A stretch of 64,000 nt of DNA from Candidatus Daviesbacteria bacterium RIFCSPHIGHO2_02_FULL_36_13 (GCA_001777015.1 MFCV01000044.1:16786-80785), one strand, 5' to 3'. Shown: positions 40,886 through 45,510, numbered from the stretch's first letter. Notes: generated by a model not told the origin, from the sequence alone. A program made the numbers and translations.

Positions 40886-40977
40886 AAAAATTCTGCTCTA
40901 TATATAGTTTAACTAATACCTACTTGACCATGCAATAGCTCTCAGGCTAAACTTGTATAAAGGAGGTGATTTATATT

Positions 40978-41202
40978 ATGGACGATTCTCAACAAGGAGG
41001 AACAGGCGGTGGTGCTCCAACAGATGCACCGGCTACAGATCAACCAGTTGTTGATCCTAACGCTACACCAGTAGCAGAAGAAACTCCTGCTCCAGAAGCT
41101 ACACCAGAAGCTAACCCAGAAGCTACACCTGATACAGGTAGCGGCGATGCTGGAAATGGTGGAATGGGTGGCGGCGACCAAGGTGGTCAACCTACTGTTT
41201 AA
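40978..41202 (+). CDS. Small acidic Pro/Thr/Glu/Gly-rich low-complexity protein
   Basis: A strong SD AAGGAGGTGA lies 8 nt before ATG 40978. Composition (ATPE repeats, GGMGGGDQGG) suggests a disordered peptide. Confidence 0.4.
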   Translation: MDDSQQGGTGGGAPTDAPATDQPVVDPNATPVAEETPAPEATPEANPEATPDTGSGDAGNGGMGGGDQGGQPTV

Positions 41203-41204
41203 AA

Positions 41205-42350
41205 CTATAGTTTTAGGTTAGGAAGGTTATTAGAAATAATAGCCTTCCTGATTTTTTTGACTAAATTGGTTACAAAATAAATGTTGTGATAAGTGGCAAG
41301 TTCGTGGTATAAAATCTCCCCTGATAAATATAAATGTCTAAGATAGGCTCTGGAAAAGTTTTGACAAGTGTAACAGCTACATTGAGGATCAATTGGTTTC
41401 TTATCTGCCTTATATTTAGATTGTCCAATGCTGAGTGTTTGGTTATTAGAAACATACAATGATCCAAATCTAGCTCTTCTGGTAGGAGCCACACAATCAA
41501 ACATATCAACTCCCCTTTTTATGCCTTCTATTAAATCTTCTATCTCCCCTATCCCCAAAAGATGCCTTATTTTATTCTCACTAACCTGCGGCAAAGTATA
41601 ATCAATCATCTGGTACATTTGTTTTTTAGTTCCATAAATTCCCCCCAAAGCAATGGCTTCAAAATTTTGATCTGTAAACTTGGCAGATCTAATCCTAAGT
41701 TTCTTATTAGTACCACCATGGACAACCCCATACATTAATTGTTTGGAATCCAATTTTTTAAAAGCAGCTAAAGACCTTTTAGCCCATCCTTCTGTCCTTT
41801 CAATAGATTCCAAAAGATGTTTTGCGTCATCTCTATATTCATGGTCATCAAAAGCCACTGTTAAATCTGCACCCAAATGCAATTGTAACTCCATAGATTT
41901 TTCTGGAGTTAAGATATGAGTTGATCCATCTAAGTGGGATTGAAAAGTGACTCCCTCCTCAGTAATTTTGTTTAACTTAGGTCTTGGTGATTCTTTAACT
42001 TTTCCATTTTTTGAGCTCACAACTTTACTGGATCCTTCTTCCATCCCCCCACCTAATGAGAATACCTGGAAGCCCCCTGAATCAGTCATAATCGGCCTGT
42101 CCCACCCCATAAACTTATGTAGGCCACCAAAGCTCTTTATCACCTTAACCCCTGGTCTGAGCATTAGATGATAAGTATTAGCCAAAACCATCTGAACACC
42201 TATTTCGTTCAAGTCTTTTGGAGACATAGCTTTAACTGTAGCTTGAGTACCAACTGGGTTAAAATTAGGAGTCTCAATAACTCCATGAGGAGTTTCCAAA
42301 AGCCCTACCCTTGCTTTCCCATCTTTATGTAAAATTTTGAAATTACTCAT
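41205..42350 (-). CDS. tgt: Queuine tRNA-ribosyltransferase
   Basis: N-terminal HKDGKARVGLLETPHGVIETPNFNPVGTQATVKAM (Tgt signature) and a C-terminal Zn site CxCxxC...H (CSCYTCQNFSRAYLRH). Confidence 0.85.
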   Translation of the reverse strand: MSNFKILHKDGKARVGLLETPHGVIETPNFNPVGTQATVKAMSPKDLNEIGVQMVLANTYHLMLRPGVKVIKSFGGLHKFMGWDRPIMTDSGGFQVFSLGGGMEEGSSKVVSSKNGKVKESPRPKLNKITEEGVTFQSHLDGSTHILTPEKSMELQLHLGADLTVAFDDHEYRDDAKHLLESIERTEGWAKRSLAAFKKLDSKQLMYGVVHGGTNKKLRIRSAKFTDQNFEAIALGGIYGTKKQMYQMIDYTLPQVSENKIRHLLGIGEIEDLIEGIKRGVDMFDCVAPTRRARFGSLYVSNNQTLSIGQSKYKADKKPIDPQCSCYTCQNFSRAYLRHLYLSGEILYHELATYHNIYFVTNLVKKIRKAIISNNLPNLKL

Positions 42351-42368
42351 CTTGTTAATTATAGATAT

Positions 42369-43424
42369 CTAGCTTCCGTCCTTCCACAACCAAACTTGAT
42401 TTTTAAGTTGTTGAGTTAATTTAAAGCTATTAGCATGACCTAAAAAGCCTAAGTATGACTGTAGAGATTGATTAAAAGTATCTGAGTTTATTTTTGTTTG
42501 TAGTTTCTTAAACATTCTCTTTCTTGTCCTGGTTCTGGGTAAAATATAATGAGGCAATATGACATACCCTAAAAAATCAATTCCTTGAGTATATTTTCTT
42601 ATCTTAATTTTGTTAGGATGCAAGGATAGTTCAAGACCATTTTTTAGAAATTCTTCTATCCTAGGTATTAAGTTCTCCAAATAATCCTTATCCCTTGATA
42701 AAACTACAAAATCATCTGCATAACGCACGTAGTATTTAACCCTTAACTTATGCTTCATAAACTGGTCAAGTTCATTCATGTAAATATTGGCAAAAATTTG
42801 GCTAGTCAGATTGCCAATTGGGATACTTTTTTCTTCAGAAAAGCTTTTTAGAATATTTTCTAAAAGCCAAATTAAGTCCTTATCGTATATCTTTTTTCTA
42901 ATAAGACTTAACAAAATATTGTGGTCAACACTTGCAAAAAACTTCCTTATATCAAGCTTTAAACAATAACATTCCCCCTTATAATTGTTACTAACTTTTC
43001 TAATAAAAACGTTTAATCTTTTAACTGCTCTATGAGTTCCTTTATTTACCCTACAGGAATATGAATCATAAATAAAACTTTTATCAAAAAGCGGTTCAAT
43101 TGCAGACACTATGGCGTGATGAACTATCCTATCTTCAACTGTAGCCTTATGAATATTGCGGAATTTAGGATCATAAATGTTAAATGCCATATAATAAGCA
43201 TGCATATAAGTTTTTGTTTTTAAGTTCTCAAATAAATTAAAAAGATTATCTTCTAAGTTCTTTTCGAAAATTTGTACATCTTTCCTTCGCCTCTTACCCA
43301 CTTTAAATCCATTCCAGGCTTGAAATAGGCTCTCAATTGATATAAGATTCGAATAATCGAATCTTGCGACTTTGTCTAAAGATCCCATTTCCTCTGCCTT
43401 TTCAAATATTTTAGAATTTTCCAT
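42369..43424 (-). CDS. Diversity-generating retroelement (DGR) reverse transcriptase
   Basis: RT motifs 1-7 including YVRYADDFVV and the DGR-specific motif-4 signature IGNLTSQ (PIGNLTSQIFANIYMNELD). About 350 aa with no maturase/endonuclease domain. Lies next to a TR/VR pair. The longer ORF start (MGISKLYAVCVCVCV) is an artefact of the (CA)11 repeat; the real start is taken as MENSKIF. Confidence 0.8.
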   Translation of the reverse strand: MENSKIFEKAEEMGSLDKVARFDYSNLISIESLFQAWNGFKVGKRRRKDVQIFEKNLEDNLFNLFENLKTKTYMHAYYMAFNIYDPKFRNIHKATVEDRIVHHAIVSAIEPLFDKSFIYDSYSCRVNKGTHRAVKRLNVFIRKVSNNYKGECYCLKLDIRKFFASVDHNILLSLIRKKIYDKDLIWLLENILKSFSEEKSIPIGNLTSQIFANIYMNELDQFMKHKLRVKYYVRYADDFVVLSRDKDYLENLIPRIEEFLKNGLELSLHPNKIKIRKYTQGIDFLGYVILPHYILPRTRTRKRMFKKLQTKINSDTFNQSLQSYLGFLGHANSFKLTQQLKNQVWLWKDGS

Positions 43425-43472
43425 ATGGATACAAATAAACAAAGTTTGCCAGATAAATCTAGTAAAGATATT

Positions 43473-43494
43473 CACACACACACACACACACACA
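43473..43494. repeat. (CA)11 dinucleotide microsatellite in the divergent region between the DGR RT and avd
   Basis: cacacacacacacacacacaca read directly from the sequence. Confidence 0.9.
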
Positions 43495-43500
43495 GCATAT

Positions 43501-43839
43501 AGTTTTGATATTCCCATTTTTCAAAAACTATATGATTTCTATTTGCTCTTATACCAAAGCTTAAAACTTTTTCCCAAAAAGGATCGTTTTACTCTTGGAC
43601 AGAAGATAGACAATCTTGCTTTAATAATTTTTGAGCAGGTTTTTGCAGCAGGAACAACTACACCAGATAGGAAATTACCTATACTAGAAAAATCTATTGC
43701 CTCTTTAGATCTTCTTAAGATACTAGTAAGGCTAGCCAAAGATATACAAGCTCTAGATAATAAAAAATATCTCCAGCTAGAGCAAGCCCTGCAAGAAATA
43801 GGCAGAATGCTTGGTGGCTGGAGAAAATCTTTAAAATGA
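43501..43839 (+). CDS. avd: DGR accessory variability determinant (Avd)-like four-helix-bundle protein; start codon unresolved
   Basis: LYDFYLLLYQSLKLFPKKDRFTLGQKIDNLALIIFEQV and the following helices match the Avd/23S-IVS four-helix-bundle pattern (FPKxERFxLxxQ). There is no in-frame ATG: candidates are ATT 43510, TTG 43543, or the long TTG ORF from 43372. It is on the strand opposite the RT and target. Confidence 0.5.
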   Translation, partial: SFDIPIFQKLYDFYLLLYQSLKLFPKKDRFTLGQKIDNLALIIFEQVFAAGTTTPDRKLPILEKSIASLDLLKILVRLAKDIQALDNKKYLQLEQALQEIGRMLGGWRKSLK

Positions 43840-43870
43840 GCAAGCTCTCTTTCAGATAACAAGACCCTAC

Positions 43871-43995
43871 CACGGAAGAACGCCCACCCAAGTTCGGATT
43901 GTGATTGTCAGACTTCAGATTCCAATTGACGTTCAAGTTGCCATTCGAATTGAAGTTCGCATTAACGACCTTACCATCGTTCCGAGACTCAAGCA
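43871..43995 (-). repeat. DGR template repeat (TR), 125 bp, adenine-rich on the minus strand (Asn AAC codons)
   Basis: 125-bp near-copy of 44388-44512. All 16 differences are at TR positions that are A on the minus strand (T on the plus strand). In the target frame the TR encodes NANFNSNGNLNVNWN. Confidence 0.8.
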
Positions 43996-44296
43996 TTATG
44001 TTGCTTTATGCCATCTTTCATCACTGTAGCTAGAACTATTTCTTACTACTGTATTTCATTTGGGAGTACCTGCAAAACAGGATCTCCGCCAGCATAAAAC
44101 AAGGAGTGTCTTGTTTTTCTTATTGTACGCTTCCAAAATCCTTAGATTTTAGAATTCTGACAAGTTGTTTGAAAAACAACAATTTCAGTATCCTGACAAC
44201 AATATTGTTAGGAGTATTAACCTACTTTCAAAGTAAATATAAGCATCTGCTTCGCATTTCGCAAGAGGGTATTTTAGCTCGTACTAGCAGAGCTTG

Positions 44297-44318
44297 CCTT
44301 TTTCCTTCGGAAAAACGT
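44297..44318 (-). promoter_or_regulatory. Hairpin CCTTTTTCCTTCGGAAAAACG (7-bp stem, 4-nt loop) about 50 nt downstream of the target stop; DGR-associated hairpin or terminator candidate
   Basis: Inverted repeat read from the sequence. A second perfect palindrome AAAAGCTTAAGCTTTT at 44364-44379 lies 9 nt beyond the VR end. Confidence 0.3.
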
Positions 44319-44369
44319 AAAAAAATTCGGAAAGTTCAAAGGGGCAAAAAAGAACAAAGAATCAAAAGC

Positions 44370-45170
44370 TTAAGCTTTTTTCACTCCCACGGAAGAACGC
44401 CCACCCAAGCTCGGATGGTGATCGTCAGACTTCAGATACCAATGGACGCCCAAGTAGCCATCCGAATAGAAGTCCGCATCAACGACCTCACCACCGAGCC
44501 GAGACTCAAGCAAACGAGACCAAGTAGAACCTTGATCAAAGTATTCACCTGTTAAAAGTTTGTGATCCTGTGAAGCAATAATATATTCTGTAGCTGTTAA
44601 ACCTTCTCTATTCGCTTTTTTAAGTTGATCCTTTAGTTGCTTCTCAGTCGTATCAAGATATGGGGCATTAGTAGTGGCTTCTGTGTATCTCCAACCAGAA
44701 TGATCTACTTCATTAGTTACGCTAGTATTTTCTGCAACAGAATGGCTTTGCATAGCAGGCCATATTTTACCTAAAAGATGTCTTGTAGCTTGTGTGGATA
44801 ATTCAGTAGGAACAAATATAGGTCTGTCTCCTCTTAAGATGTGTTCATTTAAATCTGCTTGGCTACCTTCAAAAGCAGGAACTGCGATATTAAGACCAAC
44901 TTGCTCTCCCCGAACTCTCCATTCTAACTGCCAACTTGAAGTTACAGCCTCAGGAGTATTTAATCTTCCAGCTCTAAATTCAGCCACAACTGAAGCCAAA
45001 GGATCTTGTTCAACCAATATTTGACCATTTTCAGTAAACCAACCTCTTGCATTACCTCTACCAGCTCGTTTCATCAGGTCTTTTAAACCCTCTGCTCTTT
45101 TAACATCACCAGCATTAACTGCTGCTCGTCTTTCTGCACCAAGAGCGTTTTGAATCACTTCGTGTGTCAT
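44370..45170 (-). CDS. DGR target (variable) protein; the C-terminal VR-encoded region is presumably a ligand-binding C-type-lectin/FGE-like fold
   Basis: The VR occupies codons about 219-260 with a short invariant tail GVKKA after it. No obvious signal peptide. The fold is inferred from the DGR paradigm and not seen directly. Confidence 0.7.
   Translation of the reverse strand: MTHEVIQNALGAERRAAVNAGDVKRAEGLKDLMKRAGRGNARGWFTENGQILVEQDPLASVVAEFRAGRLNTPEAVTSSWQLEWRVRGEQVGLNIAVPAFEGSQADLNEHILRGDRPIFVPTELSTQATRHLLGKIWPAMQSHSVAENTSVTNEVDHSGWRYTEATTNAPYLDTTEKQLKDQLKKANREGLTATEYIIASQDHKLLTGEYFDQGSTWSRLLESRLGGEVVDADFYSDGYLGVHWYLKSDDHHPSLGGRSSVGVKKA
44388..44512 (-). repeat. DGR variable repeat (VR) at the 3' end of the target gene
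   Basis: Encodes the C-terminal ~40 aa of the 266-aa target (SRLLESRLGGEVVDADFYSDGYLGVHWYLKSDDHHPSLGGRSSV). The 3' 22 nt, CTTGGGTGGGCGTTCTTCCGTG on the minus strand, are identical to the TR and GC-rich (IMH-like). Confidence 0.8.
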
Positions 45171-45213
45171 ATAGTTTGATATATTACTATTCTATAGGGT
45201 GTTTGTCAAATAT

Positions 45214-45510
45214 CTAGGCAGCTTCAGTCAGTGGTTCAAGTCTAAGCTCAGGTGGAACATTTACACCGCTATCTTCTTCCAAAGTCTCTACTCTTTCTTC
45301 CACTTTACGAATATTTGAATCATTTATCTTGTACATATCTCCATAGGCATTAATCTTTTGTTCAATTGTTGCTACTCCTGCAGAAGCAGCATCAAGCTGG
45401 CTTTTAATCGCAGCCAAACCGTTATCAGGATCATCAAGTCTCTGATTTATTGGCTCTATAGCTTTATTAACCACTTCTTCAACTATTGCTTTTAATCTAT
45501 TTTCATCCAT
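45214..45510 (-). CDS. Hypothetical coiled-coil protein immediately upstream of the DGR target
   Basis: 98 aa, helical heptad-like composition. Confidence 0.4.
   Translation of the reverse strand: MDENRLKAIVEEVVNKAIEPINQRLDDPDNGLAAIKSQLDAASAGVATIEQKINAYGDMYKINDSNIRKVEERVETLEEDSGVNVPPELRLEPLTEAA

Follow-up and report, generated by a model that had tools for sequence, protein, structure and literature searches.

The diversity-generating retroelements (DGRs) of CPR bacteria are largely of one kind: the B3 architecture, TR-(avd)-RT, is reported to account for 90% of them (Wu et al. 2018, PMC5758913). The DGR of Bordetella phage BPP-1 consists of mtd with its variable region (VR), avd, the template region (TR), the Sp RNA, and brt. 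There, avd precedes TR and is encoded on the same strand, and the primer comes from a 140-nt spacer RNA that follows TR (10.1101/2023.10.23.563531). The RNA motif RT-16 belongs to a set, RT-1 to RT-19, of which only RT-10 has been assigned to a DGR, the others having been left unassigned (Weinberg et al. 2017, PMC5737381).

Here, we describe a DGR found in a 64 kb stretch of DNA, referred to below as the window. The locus has the parts of the CPR B3 DGRs in matching order and orientation: a target gene with a 3′ VR, a TR, a reverse-strand avd, and a reverse transcriptase (RT) gene. It also shares with them the host group, the Microgenomates/CPR groundwater genomes, and a target without a recognizable Pfam domain. 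The initial annotation had suggested that such a system may be undescribed for this lineage. That suggestion is not supported: the protein is a public Candidatus Daviesbacteria (CPR) sequence, the B3 layout is known (PMC5758913), and the DGR is an ordinary CPR type from ultra-small groundwater bacteria, not a new lineage feature. What sets our proposal apart is a simple-sequence repeat in avd. We think it likely that we have here a chromosomal DGR with the B3 layout typical of CPR, in which this repeat tract acts as a slipped-strand phase switch on Avd.

The TR/VR Pair and the Target Gene

The TR occupies 125 nt at 43871-43995 on the minus strand. Its repeat partner, the VR (44388-44512, minus strand), forms the last ~41 codons of the target gene, whose stop codon lies 15 nt downstream of the VR. 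In a machine alignment read on the minus strand, TR and VR have 16 mismatches in 125 nt, and all of them are at TR adenines. Sixteen of the 32 TR adenines are substituted, nine to G, four to T, and three to C, and there are no differences at non-A positions. The machine alignment thus reproduces exactly the count made by hand in the initial annotation, and the hypergeometric probability that all 16 mismatches fall on the 32 A residues among 125 positions is 9.6e-12. In the frame of the target, the TR reads LESRNDGKVVNANFNSNGNLNVNWNLKSDNHNPNLGGRSSV. It contains 12 Asn codons (AAY), 7 AAT and 5 AAC, and none of its third codon positions is an A.

The 3′-terminal 22 nt of both TR and VR are free of A and have 64% G+C, compared with 36% for the window. 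The sequence of this segment, CTTGGGTGGGCGTTCTTCCGTG, is the same in the two repeats, and the region is a plausible candidate for the IMH. TR/VR identity runs one base further (43870/44387), after which the TR has T and the VR has G (43869/44386). This T/G difference, the first to fall at a position other than an adenine, recurs in the related loci L001 and L002, not in L003. Beyond this one difference, which falls just outside the repeat, TR and VR show no IMH/IMH* pair with multiple differences. A palindrome, AAAAGCTTAAGCTTTT, follows the VR; it overlaps the KKA-stop codons and is poorly conserved. Any candidate for a hairpin downstream of the TR is weak and is not conserved across related loci. 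The 64 kb window contains no second VR. An ORF that spans the TR (43715-43996) has no Pfam match, and we take it to be a by-product of the TR/VR homology.

In L001, L002, and L003, a TR/VR pair is found at the same place. By machine tally, 14 of the 15 TR/VR differences in L001 are at TR adenines; the pairs of L002 and L003 were inspected in the alignment only.

The target, or variable-protein, gene (44370-45170, minus strand) encodes 266 amino acid residues, with an N-terminal helical region followed by a C-terminal C-type-lectin/FGE-like domain that contains the VR. The C-type-lectin/FGE fold, with the VR at the C-terminus, is what the protein models as. No signal peptide is obvious by eye. 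Among 40 homologues of the target, the scaffold is kept, and variation is found at the Asn-templated columns.

The variability expected of the VR in a population is absent from assembled consensus sequences. All ten assemblies compared that carry this target have the same VR, two SNP-level strain variants among them; the exact target is present on at least 24 contigs. In two of the ten assemblies, the RT/avd region departs from that of the window, by 6 substitutions in one and 20 in the other. Nine independent assemblies agree in VR, TR, and leader alike; the tenth, L099, stops within the cassette and has the VR only.

The Leader RNA and the TR-avd Gap

Directly 5′ of the TR is a conserved segment predicted to form a structured leader RNA (43996-44160, minus strand), which shows covariation and resembles RT-16. 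Its predicted elements are an upstream hairpin at ~44155-44128, a long-range helix in which 44102-44091 pairs with 44012-44001, and a 5-bp stem formed by 44049-44045 and 44030-44026. The 5-bp stem is flanked by invariant AUGAAAUACA and AGUGA sequences. RNAalifold predicts this stem, with compensatory changes in 5 of the 5 pairs. It is fully paired in 40 of 54 unique loci, with 19 distinct arms (shuffle maximum, 17).

The Rfam RT-16 model (RF03019) gives a full-length match at 43995-44146, with a score of 24.8 bits, under the gathering score of 50. A match at the same place, scoring 27.8-32.2 bits, is found in 5 of 20 related loci; at the gathering score, neither the window nor any of the 20 loci has a match. 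Given scores of 24.8-32.2 bits against a gathering score of 50, the leader is best described as a divergent relative of RT-16 rather than a certified member. The element is probably homologous to RT-16 and probably works like it.

On the other side of the TR, a 31-nt gap (43840-43870, minus strand) extends from the TR end to the avd stop codon and contains a motif, G-GTAG-GGTCTTG, conserved across the clade. In alignments, either GGTAG..TCTTG or GATAGTTTCT is found directly 3′ of the TR in most loci. The distance from the TR to the avd stop codon is often 10-40 nt in related loci.

The Reverse Transcriptase

The RT gene (42369-43424, minus strand) encodes 351 residues, counted from an ATG that matches the starts of its homologues, and has a Pfam RVT_1 match of 3.7e-28. 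The ORF contains IPIGNLTSQIFANIY, and the IGNLTSQ and YADD motifs are present, as had been noted initially. The best PDB match is 8ub7_A (328 aa, deposited as “Reverse transcriptase”), at 148.7 bits, which we take to be the Bordetella phage DGR enzyme, bRT. The next PDB match, to a retron-type/group II RT, has about half that score, 75.9 bits. Reverse transcriptases in 181 phage records, which include 5 Bordetella phages, ANMV-1, and crAss-like phages, share 36-44% identity with the RT of the window. The NCBIfam group II, retron, and Drt models all score far under their cut-offs against it. Judged by motifs and similarity scores, the enzyme appears to be an RT of the DGR clade, nearer to DGR RTs than to those of group II introns or retrons.

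Avd

The conserved body of avd (43510-43839, plus strand) encodes 109 residues, IPIFQKLYDF...GGWRKSLK, of the bAvd/DivGenRetAVD family. It matches Pfam bAvd (PF22296) at 66.1 bits, with a cut-off of 40, and NCBIfam DivGenRetAVD (NF033474) at 81.6 bits, with a cut-off of 80; both matches start at residue 48 of a 155-aa ORF. The Avd-like ORF reported between TR and RT in the initial annotation therefore passes the family cut-offs, and the strand, which was lacking there, can now be added: avd is opposite to the target, TR, and RT. It is inverted in every related locus with enough sequence.

The proposed 5′ end of avd (43425-43472, plus strand) consists of an ATG at 43425-43427 and 15 codons, MDTNKQSLPDKSSKDI, leading into the repeat. 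On the other strand, the RT start codon lies immediately next to this ATG (CAT/ATG, 43422-43427), and back-to-back or overlapping avd and RT ATGs are found in most related loci. Because the two start codons abut, the promoter of each gene must sit inside the other gene. Near the Avd body, there is no ATG, GTG, or TTG. The body and the ATG at 43425-43427 lie in different frames, with (CA)11 between them, and the sole in-frame start for the 11-unit Avd is a TTG at 43372, which falls within the opposite-strand RT gene. The description of the DGR as complete is thus correct as far as RT, Avd, TR, and a cognate VR are all present, and it is doubtful for this allele, in which the Avd body is out of frame with the ATG.

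A Simple-Sequence Repeat within avd

The (CA)11 repeat (43473-43494, plus strand), proposed here to be the slipped-strand switch, separates the avd ATG from the Avd body. The window has no other dinucleotide repeat. The frame depends on the number of units, as follows. Tracts of 9 or 12 units put the ATG in frame with the body; with 8 or 11 units, only the distant TTG is in frame; and with 10 units, there is no start. Assemblies of this strain have 8, 9, 10, or 11 CA units. Among same-strain assemblies, the avd-RT region varies only in copy number, several having zero substitutions over 2.95 kb; L091 and L094 are SNP variants, and the 8-unit assembly is a SNP variant. In the 9-unit allele (L092), avd is called as a 136-aa gene ending exactly at the RT start codon, and translation from the ATG gives an in-frame product. 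Since the ATG is out of frame in the 11-unit allele, the element in the window is most likely OFF or weakly expressed. The frame of this allele is open back to the TTG at 43372, and so it may not be fully OFF.

We sampled related loci as those with RTs at least 51% identical to that of the window. A repeat is present at the avd site in 63 of 75 such loci, a lenient automatic scan having given 64, of which one spurious A6 (L038) was dropped. The repeat is 13-66 nt upstream of the conserved IPIF codons, and the tract is from ~7 to 76 nt long. Units are 1, 2, 4, or 5 nt long and never a multiple of 3; a hand tally gives about 40 CA, 11 poly-C, 6 AGGAC-type, 2 ACAG-type, 1 AATC, and 3 AG repeats. 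In six further loci, where the sequence ends before avd, a repeat is found just upstream of RT. Other di-, tetra-, and pentanucleotide repeats of that size are absent from the related loci (491 kb) and from the window (64 kb), ~555 kb in all. Twelve viral RT loci, five with an Avd match and two of these with a same-strand avd, contain no such repeat.

Every repeat locus has an ATG upstream of the repeat, with the frame open into the repeat. By reading of the listing, the nearest upstream ATG shares the Avd frame in 14 loci and does not in 47; in the two remaining repeat loci, this window and L001, the only in-frame start is a TTG. The repeat-free relatives, 12 of 12, have an in-frame ATG 4-16 codons before IPIF. 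The peptide between the repeat and IPIF (e.g., LPEFGLD) is common to repeat-bearing and repeat-free loci, which indicates that this stretch is coding. Direct inspection of the common CA-type flank shows that both off-frames have stop codons within a few codons.

Copy-number polymorphism extends to four other strains. In each of them, copy number differs with zero substitutions over 1.4 kb, and in-frame and out-of-frame alleles coexist. One of the four, a Levybacteria strain, has 7, 8, or 10 units among ten assemblies, with a one-base difference in one of them. Out-of-frame alleles make up about 75% of those assembled, a proportion that fits a neutral scramble and would also fit a tract irrelevant to Avd production.

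Proposed Role of the Repeat

By analogy with the Bordetella phage DGR, the locus would work as follows. A minus-strand transcript would carry the RT-16-related structured leader and then the 125-nt TR. RT and Avd would copy the TR into cDNA, misincorporating opposite adenines. The cDNA would then take the place of the 3′-terminal VR of the 266-aa target gene, with homology supplied by the 3′ ends of TR and VR, which are A-free and G+C-rich. As many as 12 Asn-templated positions of a C-type-lectin-fold binding surface could be rewritten in this way. To this, the clade would add a layer of its own: an avd divergent from RT, with abutting starts and a simple-sequence repeat between the avd ATG and the body. 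Since the repeat unit is not a multiple of three, replication slippage would shift Avd in and out of frame, and since cDNA synthesis in the model DGR requires Avd, the tract would be an ON/OFF switch for mutagenesis. We suggest that Avd starts at the upstream ATG, that loss of frame stops retrohoming, and that switching is frequent. If so, the tract would be a heritable, reversible, and stochastic ON/OFF switch for mutagenesis.

A different reading, which we consider unlikely, is that the locus is a DGR whose tract does not switch anything. The tract would be a leftover, prone to mutation, in the short N-terminal extension or the 5′ leader of avd, and Avd would be made regardless, whether from a non-canonical start codon beyond the tract, by transcriptional slippage, or by ribosomal frameshifting. 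The 47 out-of-frame and 14 in-frame alleles, near the neutral-drift expectation, are consistent with such a leftover. So are the ATT/ATA codons with which the Avd body opens, and at least one earlier annotation, that of L114, has a 109-aa Avd that starts at the conserved body. Further, (AGGAC)n and (AG)n resemble Shine-Dalgarno sequences, and CA repeats are translation enhancers in E. coli. Against this, the position of the tract is kept in 63 of 75 loci while the sequence of the repeat changes by lineage, always without a 3n unit, and no comparable repeat is found elsewhere in the ~555 kb. The normal in-frame upstream ATG of all 12 repeat-free relatives also counts against this reading, and the homology of the tract-IPIF peptide to coding sequence places the tract inside the ORF, not in a leader. 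The stops that both off-frames meet soon after the common CA-type tract likewise speak against Avd being made regardless of frame.

Two other readings seem to us less probable still. In one, which we hold to be improbable, the tract would adjust the divergent RT gene, or both genes, through transcription or the 5′ UTR, as do the Haemophilus repeats that separate the divergent fimbrial promoters of hifA and hifB. The abutting starts (43422-43427) and promoters inside the opposite genes would suit this arrangement; on the RT strand, the tract precedes the RT start by 48 nt, and gene callers give RT ORFs of 339-382 aa by allele, the lengths of 375-382 aa arising by extension through the repeat. 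Since the repeat is also upstream of the RT start, an effect of the repeat on RT is inseparable from an effect on Avd. However, the range of tract lengths, ~7-76 nt, is too wide for a promoter spacer, the RT has its own ATG downstream of the tract, conserved in all loci, and the absence of 3n units is expected of a frame switch, not of a spacer. A promoter scan of the region gave matches no more numerous than in shuffled sequence. The other reading, that the DGR is decaying, we regard as very improbable. The A-only differences would then be a fossil of past activity and the avd frameshift the first step of pseudogenization, as might be read from the out-of-frame avd ATG in the window, from the identity of the VR in all assemblies, strain variants included, and from the related locus L002, which has lost avd and the RT N-terminus. 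Yet RT, Avd body, TR, leader RNA, and target are all intact and free of internal stops, and one same-strain assembly carries the in-frame 9-unit allele. Moreover, the same “defect” occurs at the same site, with differing units, in dozens of otherwise intact cassettes, which is unlike random decay.

Comparison with Known Systems

The locus shares with the BPP-1 DGR the adenine-specific differences, the Avd family, and a C-type-lectin-fold target with a C-terminal VR, and its RT has 8ub7_A as best match. Unlike in BPP-1, only 31 nt separate the TR from an inverted avd, and the structured RNA is upstream of the TR. The leader has in common with RT-16 the AUAAAAUACA-stem-...-stem-GGUGA core, the enclosing long-range helix, and an adjacent RT gene. 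It differs in scoring below the gathering score and in lying directly 5′ of a TR. A repeat inside avd, abutting RT and avd starts, and an RT-16-like leader 5′ of the TR are not described in the papers that the search covered, and the repeat may have been mentioned elsewhere.

The tract is like those of the simple-sequence repeat contingency loci of Neisseria, Haemophilus, Campylobacter, and Mycoplasma, which also have a non-3n unit near the 5′ end of an ORF. In both cases, copy number varies among otherwise identical genomes, and in-frame and out-of-frame alleles coexist. Here, the non-3n tract is inside the ORF, between start and body, and the copy-number differences change the frame. Classic contingency loci gate surface structures or restriction-modification enzymes. 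In contrast, the gene gated here would encode a cofactor for targeted mutagenesis, and the hosts are CPR bacteria, free-living or episymbiotic.

The Template and Variable Regions

Judged from its sequence, the locus is almost certainly a diversity-generating retroelement (DGR). Machine alignment of the template region (TR, 43871–43995) with the variable region (VR, 44388–44512), both on the minus strand, covers 125 nt and gives 16 mismatches. All 16 are at TR adenines: 16 of the 32 adenines are changed (nine to G, four to T, and three to C), and no non-A position differs. This is exactly the pattern that the initial annotation had reported from a manual alignment. The probability that 16 of 16 mismatches fall on 32 A among 125 positions is 9.6e-12. 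Beyond the 125 nt there is one further identical base, and the next position is T in the TR versus G in the VR. Read in frame with the target gene (44370–45170, minus strand), the TR encodes LESRNDGKVVNANFNSNGNLNVNWNLKSDNHNPNLGGRSSV, with 12 Asn codons, seven AAT and five AAC. Because its third codon positions are without A, adenine mutagenesis of the TR is unable to make a stop codon. The 3′-terminal 22 nt of TR and VR alike are A-free, with 64% G+C versus 36% for the window. A scan of the 64 kb window with A-masked TR 40-mers recovered only the known pair and no additional VR. For the 266-residue target protein, sequence searches of Pfam, NCBIfam, and PDB gave nothing, and fold comparison alone was informative.

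A GGTAG(N2-3)TCTTG or GATAGTTTCT motif lies immediately 3′ of the TR (43861–43870), with equivalents in the fetched loci L001–L089 across TR families. In three of the four TR/VR pairs examined, the T of GGTAG on the TR side is replaced by G on the VR side. The motif may be what tells TR and VR apart (IMH*/IMH), or where cDNA synthesis starts; its pairing with upstream sequence, sought by eye, was not convincing. Two short palindromes, at 44299–44315 (minus strand TTTTTCCGAAGGAAAAA) and 44370–44385 (AAAAGCTTAAGCTTTT), lie in the 210-nt interval from the target stop codon, which the latter overlaps, to the leader RNA. Both lack a following T run and clear conservation among relatives. A conserved hairpin after the VR was considered and rejected, as the palindrome there is mostly accounted for by KKA-stop codons and is poorly kept in relatives.

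The Reverse Transcriptase

The reverse transcriptase (RT) ORF, 42369–43424 on the minus strand, matches Pfam RVT_1. Its best match among solved structures is 8ub7_A, a 328-residue reverse transcriptase, at 148.7 bits, with IPIGNLTSQIFANIY facing IPIGSLTSQLFANVY in the alignment; the next are retron-type and group II intron RTs, at most 75.9 bits. From its length and motif, 8ub7 is probably the Bordetella phage bRT described by cryo-EM (10.1101/2023.10.23.563531), the entry code being absent from the preprint text. The RT is also 36–44% identical to the reverse transcriptases of 181 phage-collection records, including five Bordetella phages, ANMV-1, and crAss-like phages, and several of the matched phages are known DGR carriers. 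The NCBIfam group II intron, retron, and Drt models all scored far under their cut-offs on this protein. A group II intron or a retron is rejected given the best matches of the RT, the Avd neighbor, and the TR/VR pair, and the DGR-type RT of the initial annotation is borne out.

The avd Gene and Its Start

The ORF of avd, the gene for the DGR accessory protein, extends from 43372 to 43839 on the plus strand and scores 66.1 bits against Pfam bAvd (cut-off 40) and 81.6 bits against NCBIfam DivGenRetAVD (cut-off 80). In either case the match starts only at residue 48 of the ORF. The conserved Avd body, which begins with the residues IPIF, has no adjoining ATG, GTG, or TTG. An ATG at 43425–43427 abuts the RT start codon of the opposite strand (CAT at 43422, the junction reading CATATG to 43427) and is followed by 15 codons, a (CA)11 tract at 43473–43494 (plus strand), 15 nt, and the IPIF codons. 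With 11 units, as in the window, this ATG is out of frame, and the sole in-frame start is a TTG within the RT gene, at 43372. Alleles of 9 or 12 units bring the ATG into frame, and with 10 units there is no avd start whatsoever. The complete DGR that had been annotated stands as a DGR, Avd family match included, with the annotation of avd amended: the gene lies on the opposite strand, and the ATG of its 11-unit allele is out of frame.

Related loci also mostly have RT and avd starts that are back-to-back or overlapping (CATATG, CATG, ATGCAT). At 43422–43427 the divergent pair has zero intergenic room for promoters; therefore, each promoter must be inside the opposite gene, or the mRNAs must be leaderless. 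A promoter and terminator scan of 42300–45300 did not exceed the number of matches in shuffled sequence; one promoter-like match alone stands out, TTGACA-17-TAATAT upstream of the target gene.

The tract also bears on how the RT gene is called. A minus-strand ATG at 43517, antisense of the Avd IPIF codons, enters the RT frame via the (TG)n tract in the 11-unit allele (43425–43517). Because of this reading, RT lengths of 339, 351, 375, 380, and 382 residues have been called for one strain. The differences are probably an annotation artefact; allele-dependent upstream ORFs on the RT mRNA are possible.

A Repeat Tract in avd across Related Loci

We fetched 80 metagenome loci with RTs 51–81% identical to that of the window, 75 of which hold both RT and avd. 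A lenient automatic scan found a simple-sequence repeat at the avd site in 64 of the 75, or 63 after removal of a spurious A6 in one locus (L038), located 13–66 nt upstream of the IPIF codons. In a hand tally of the scan listing, the unit is CA in 40 loci (4–17 copies), poly-C in 11 (7–13), AGGAC-type in six (7–12), AG in three (13–27), ACAG-type in two (4–9), and AATC in one (19 copies). The unit varies by lineage, and no unit length is divisible by three. Six more loci, cut before avd, have a tract directly upstream of the RT gene. Elsewhere in the 64 kb window and in the loci (491 kb), repeats are limited to A/T homopolymers, a small number of C/G runs, and short trinucleotide repeats.

Every repeat locus has an ATG upstream of the tract, with the frame open into the tract. 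On a manual reading, 14 loci have their nearest such ATG in frame with Avd and 47 have it out of frame, while the window and L001 have an in-frame TTG only. The repeat-free relatives have an ordinary in-frame ATG, 4–16 codons ahead of IPIF, in 12 of 12 cases. Since the peptide between tract and IPIF (e.g., LPEFGLD) is common to repeat-bearing and repeat-free loci, the stretch after the tract is coding, and the tract is inside the avd ORF. As a small control, 12 viral RT loci (five with an Avd match, two of these with avd on the same strand as the RT) contain no such tract.

Some further repeats were seen. C/G homopolymers of 8–9 nt, at L010:2732-2740, L026:838-845, L029:2198-2205, L089:4916-4923, L008:9192-9199, and L046:5997-6004, all on AT-rich CPR contigs of the fetched set, may likewise be contingency loci. 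A small ORF just past tgt, 40966–41202 on the plus strand, is rich in Pro, Glu, Ala, and Thr and has 12-nt tandem repeats at 41056–41132 (CCAGAAGCTACA..., encoding PEATPEANPEATP); their unit, unlike that of the avd tract, is a multiple of three.

Copy Number and VR Constancy within Strains

Eight other assemblies of the locus, from different samples, reach the tract and are 99.3–100% identical to the window over 2.95 kb, several of them with zero substitutions. Compared with 11 units in the window, three have 11, three have 10, one has 9, and one has 8. In L092, the 9-unit assembly, gene calling gives a 136-residue Avd whose gene ends exactly at the RT gene start; translated from the ATG, it begins MDTNKQSLPDKSSKDIHTHTHTAYSFDIPIF. 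In four other strains, copy number differs with zero substitutions over 1.4 kb: (AGGAC)7 versus 8, (CA)9 versus 7, (CA)10 versus 11, and (AG)20, 13, and 27. In-frame and out-of-frame alleles coexist in each of the four. The (AGGAC) strain is a Levybacteria genome with 7, 8, or 10 units over ten assemblies, one of which has a single-base difference.

The VR, the TR, and the leader are identical across all assemblies of the strain, including two variants with 6 and 20 substitutions in the RT/avd region. The population hypervariability of the VR anticipated in the initial annotation is therefore not found at the level of assembled consensus, and current DGR activity in the strain is unproven. This constancy fits a mostly OFF state. 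Four residues set a read-derived 266-residue target variant (P0042, SRR3989344) apart from the window protein. Of these, one lies in the VR, a D to A change at a GAC codon (A-to-C at a TR adenine); as the remaining three fall outside the VR, read errors are possible. Another same-strain assembly has an IS-type transposase gene with an rve integrase domain (L099:1113-2234) between the antiporter and target genes, and its contig stops shortly past the VR.

A Proposed Frame Switch on Avd

The avd tract has the hallmarks of a simple-sequence-repeat contingency locus. Its position is kept while its sequence changes by lineage, its units are all of non-3n length, and it is located between a start codon and a conserved body. 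In addition, copy number varies among otherwise identical genomes, and in-frame and out-of-frame alleles are mixed. The RT of the Bordetella phage acts in complex with Avd, retrohoming needs the RT–Avd association (PMC5758913), and cDNA synthesis in that phage is done by bRT together with Avd (10.1101/2023.10.23.563531). It follows that loss of the Avd frame should stop mutagenesis. We propose that slipped-strand mispairing at a hypermutable tract, be it CA, poly-C, AGGAC, ACAG, AATC, or AG, would toggle the whole retroelement, the tract being a stochastic, heritable, and reversible ON/OFF switch. Hypermutation of the ligand-binding protein would then occur in stochastic, heritable bursts.

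Other explanations of the tract are to be weighed. Avd may be made from a non-canonical start despite the tract; most nearest upstream ATGs are out of frame. Slippage may instead rescue the Avd frame, or the tract may act on the divergent RT transcript, whose start codon adjoins the avd ATG. Set beside these are the non-3n units and the in-frame ATGs of the repeat-free relatives. We judge a functional frame switch on Avd to be the rather likelier account of the tract. The broader proposal, that avd serves as a contingency locus across a large clade of CPR DGRs, with the repeat between start and body turning the whole retroelement ON and OFF, we hold to be somewhat more probable than its contrary.

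The repeat tract in avd appears to be new. A literature search linking DGRs or Avd with repeat-based switching or frameshifting found nothing relevant, and an earlier mention in the principal survey of CPR DGRs (Paul et al. 2017, PMC5436926) is possible. How DGR mutagenesis is restrained in cells is an acknowledged open question, and in the words of a recent study the mechanisms that control retrohoming await discovery. A repeat-gated avd is of interest since it offers a concrete, testable answer. If true, it would be a mutational switch governing a mutator, and no concrete natural means of controlling DGR activity would have been described before it. Such a switch would work without a regulator protein, which suits CPR bacteria, with their tiny genomes and unusual abundance of DGRs. 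Should the switch idea prove wrong, the locus would still be a well-formed CPR DGR of the ordinary sort.

Genomic Context and Relatives

The cassette is flanked by tgt (41205–42350) on one side and by a small coiled-coil ORF and a cation antiporter gene on the other. This 98-residue coiled-coil ORF, 45214–45510, upstream of the target gene, was rejected as a DGR part, having no counterpart in related cassettes. Elsewhere, related cassettes lie between guaA and an ITPase gene (L003) and beside groES/groEL (L112). Wherever a related locus has enough sequence, avd and the RT gene run in opposite directions; this covers three genome loci and over 70 metagenome loci. With avd inverted and the published B3 architecture, TR-(avd)-RT, the locus is a regular member of a known, abundant kind of DGR; it falls in the CPR B3 group and is ordinary by itself. 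A hypothetical protein of Candidatus Daviesbacteria bacterium RIFCSPHIGHO2_02_FULL_36_13, a groundwater CPR/Microgenomates organism, has exactly the sequence of the target protein. Given this public protein and the B3 architecture, the suggestion that the system may be undescribed for the lineage is withdrawn.

A degenerate relative occurs in Candidatus Curtissbacteria RIFCSPLOWO2_12_FULL_41_16 (L002:6900-7950), where target, VR, and TR are present and avd is absent. The RT match there begins at residue 84, directly past the TR, and it looks like a deletion took avd and the 5′ end of the RT gene. Target homologues 33–47% identical were found in six more loci (L004–L009), several in MAGs labelled Gammaproteobacteria and one (L007) in the actinomycete chromosome of Dactylosporangium sp. 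CA-092794, 8096697–8109302. No RT or avd was detectable in their flanks (up to 6 kb per side, several contigs being shorter). Either the target scaffold family is wider than the CPR DGR cassettes, or these are remote targets or mis-binned contigs.

The Leader RNA and Comparison with Known Systems

A conserved structured RNA, 43996–44160 on the minus strand, is located directly 5′ of the TR. Its core has the order AUAAAAUACA, an arm of a 5-bp stem, a variable loop, the second arm, and RGUGA. The stem is fully paired in 40 of 54 unique loci, with 19 arm sequences, versus a shuffle maximum of 17; RNAalifold recovers the same stem, with compensatory changes at five of five pairs. A long-range helix (44102–44091 with 44012–44001, minus strand) encloses this core and ends just ahead of the TR. 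Single-sequence folding of the TR and its flanks was not significant (z = −1.9), and it revealed no stem-loop downstream of the TR that could serve as primer or bind Avd.

At gathering thresholds, Rfam finds only tRNAs. Below them, RT-16 (RF03019) matches 43995–44146 over the full model length at 24.8 bits, against a gathering score of 50, and it matches the equivalent place in 5 of 20 further loci at 27.8–32.2 bits, none reaching the gathering score. Weinberg et al. found motifs RT-1 to RT-19 beside RT genes; RT-10 alone was tied to a DGR, as a phage spacer RNA, and the others were speculated to serve other DGRs (PMC5737381). The RNA described here is a sub-gathering relative of RT-16, not a certified member, and it is placed at a TR. 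Its place 5′ of the TR suggests a possible function for an orphan Rfam motif and hints at a different arrangement of the RNA scaffold in B3 DGRs from that in the Bordetella phage model.

On sequence, the locus has the defining features of the DGR family and most likely works like the Bordetella phage DGR. The phage model has a 140-nt spacer downstream of the TR, without an obvious counterpart here: the distance from the TR to the end of the inverted avd is 31 nt (10–40 nt in many relatives), with the conserved GGTAG..TCTTG motif inside. The role of that spacer would then fall to the upstream leader or to antisense avd RNA.
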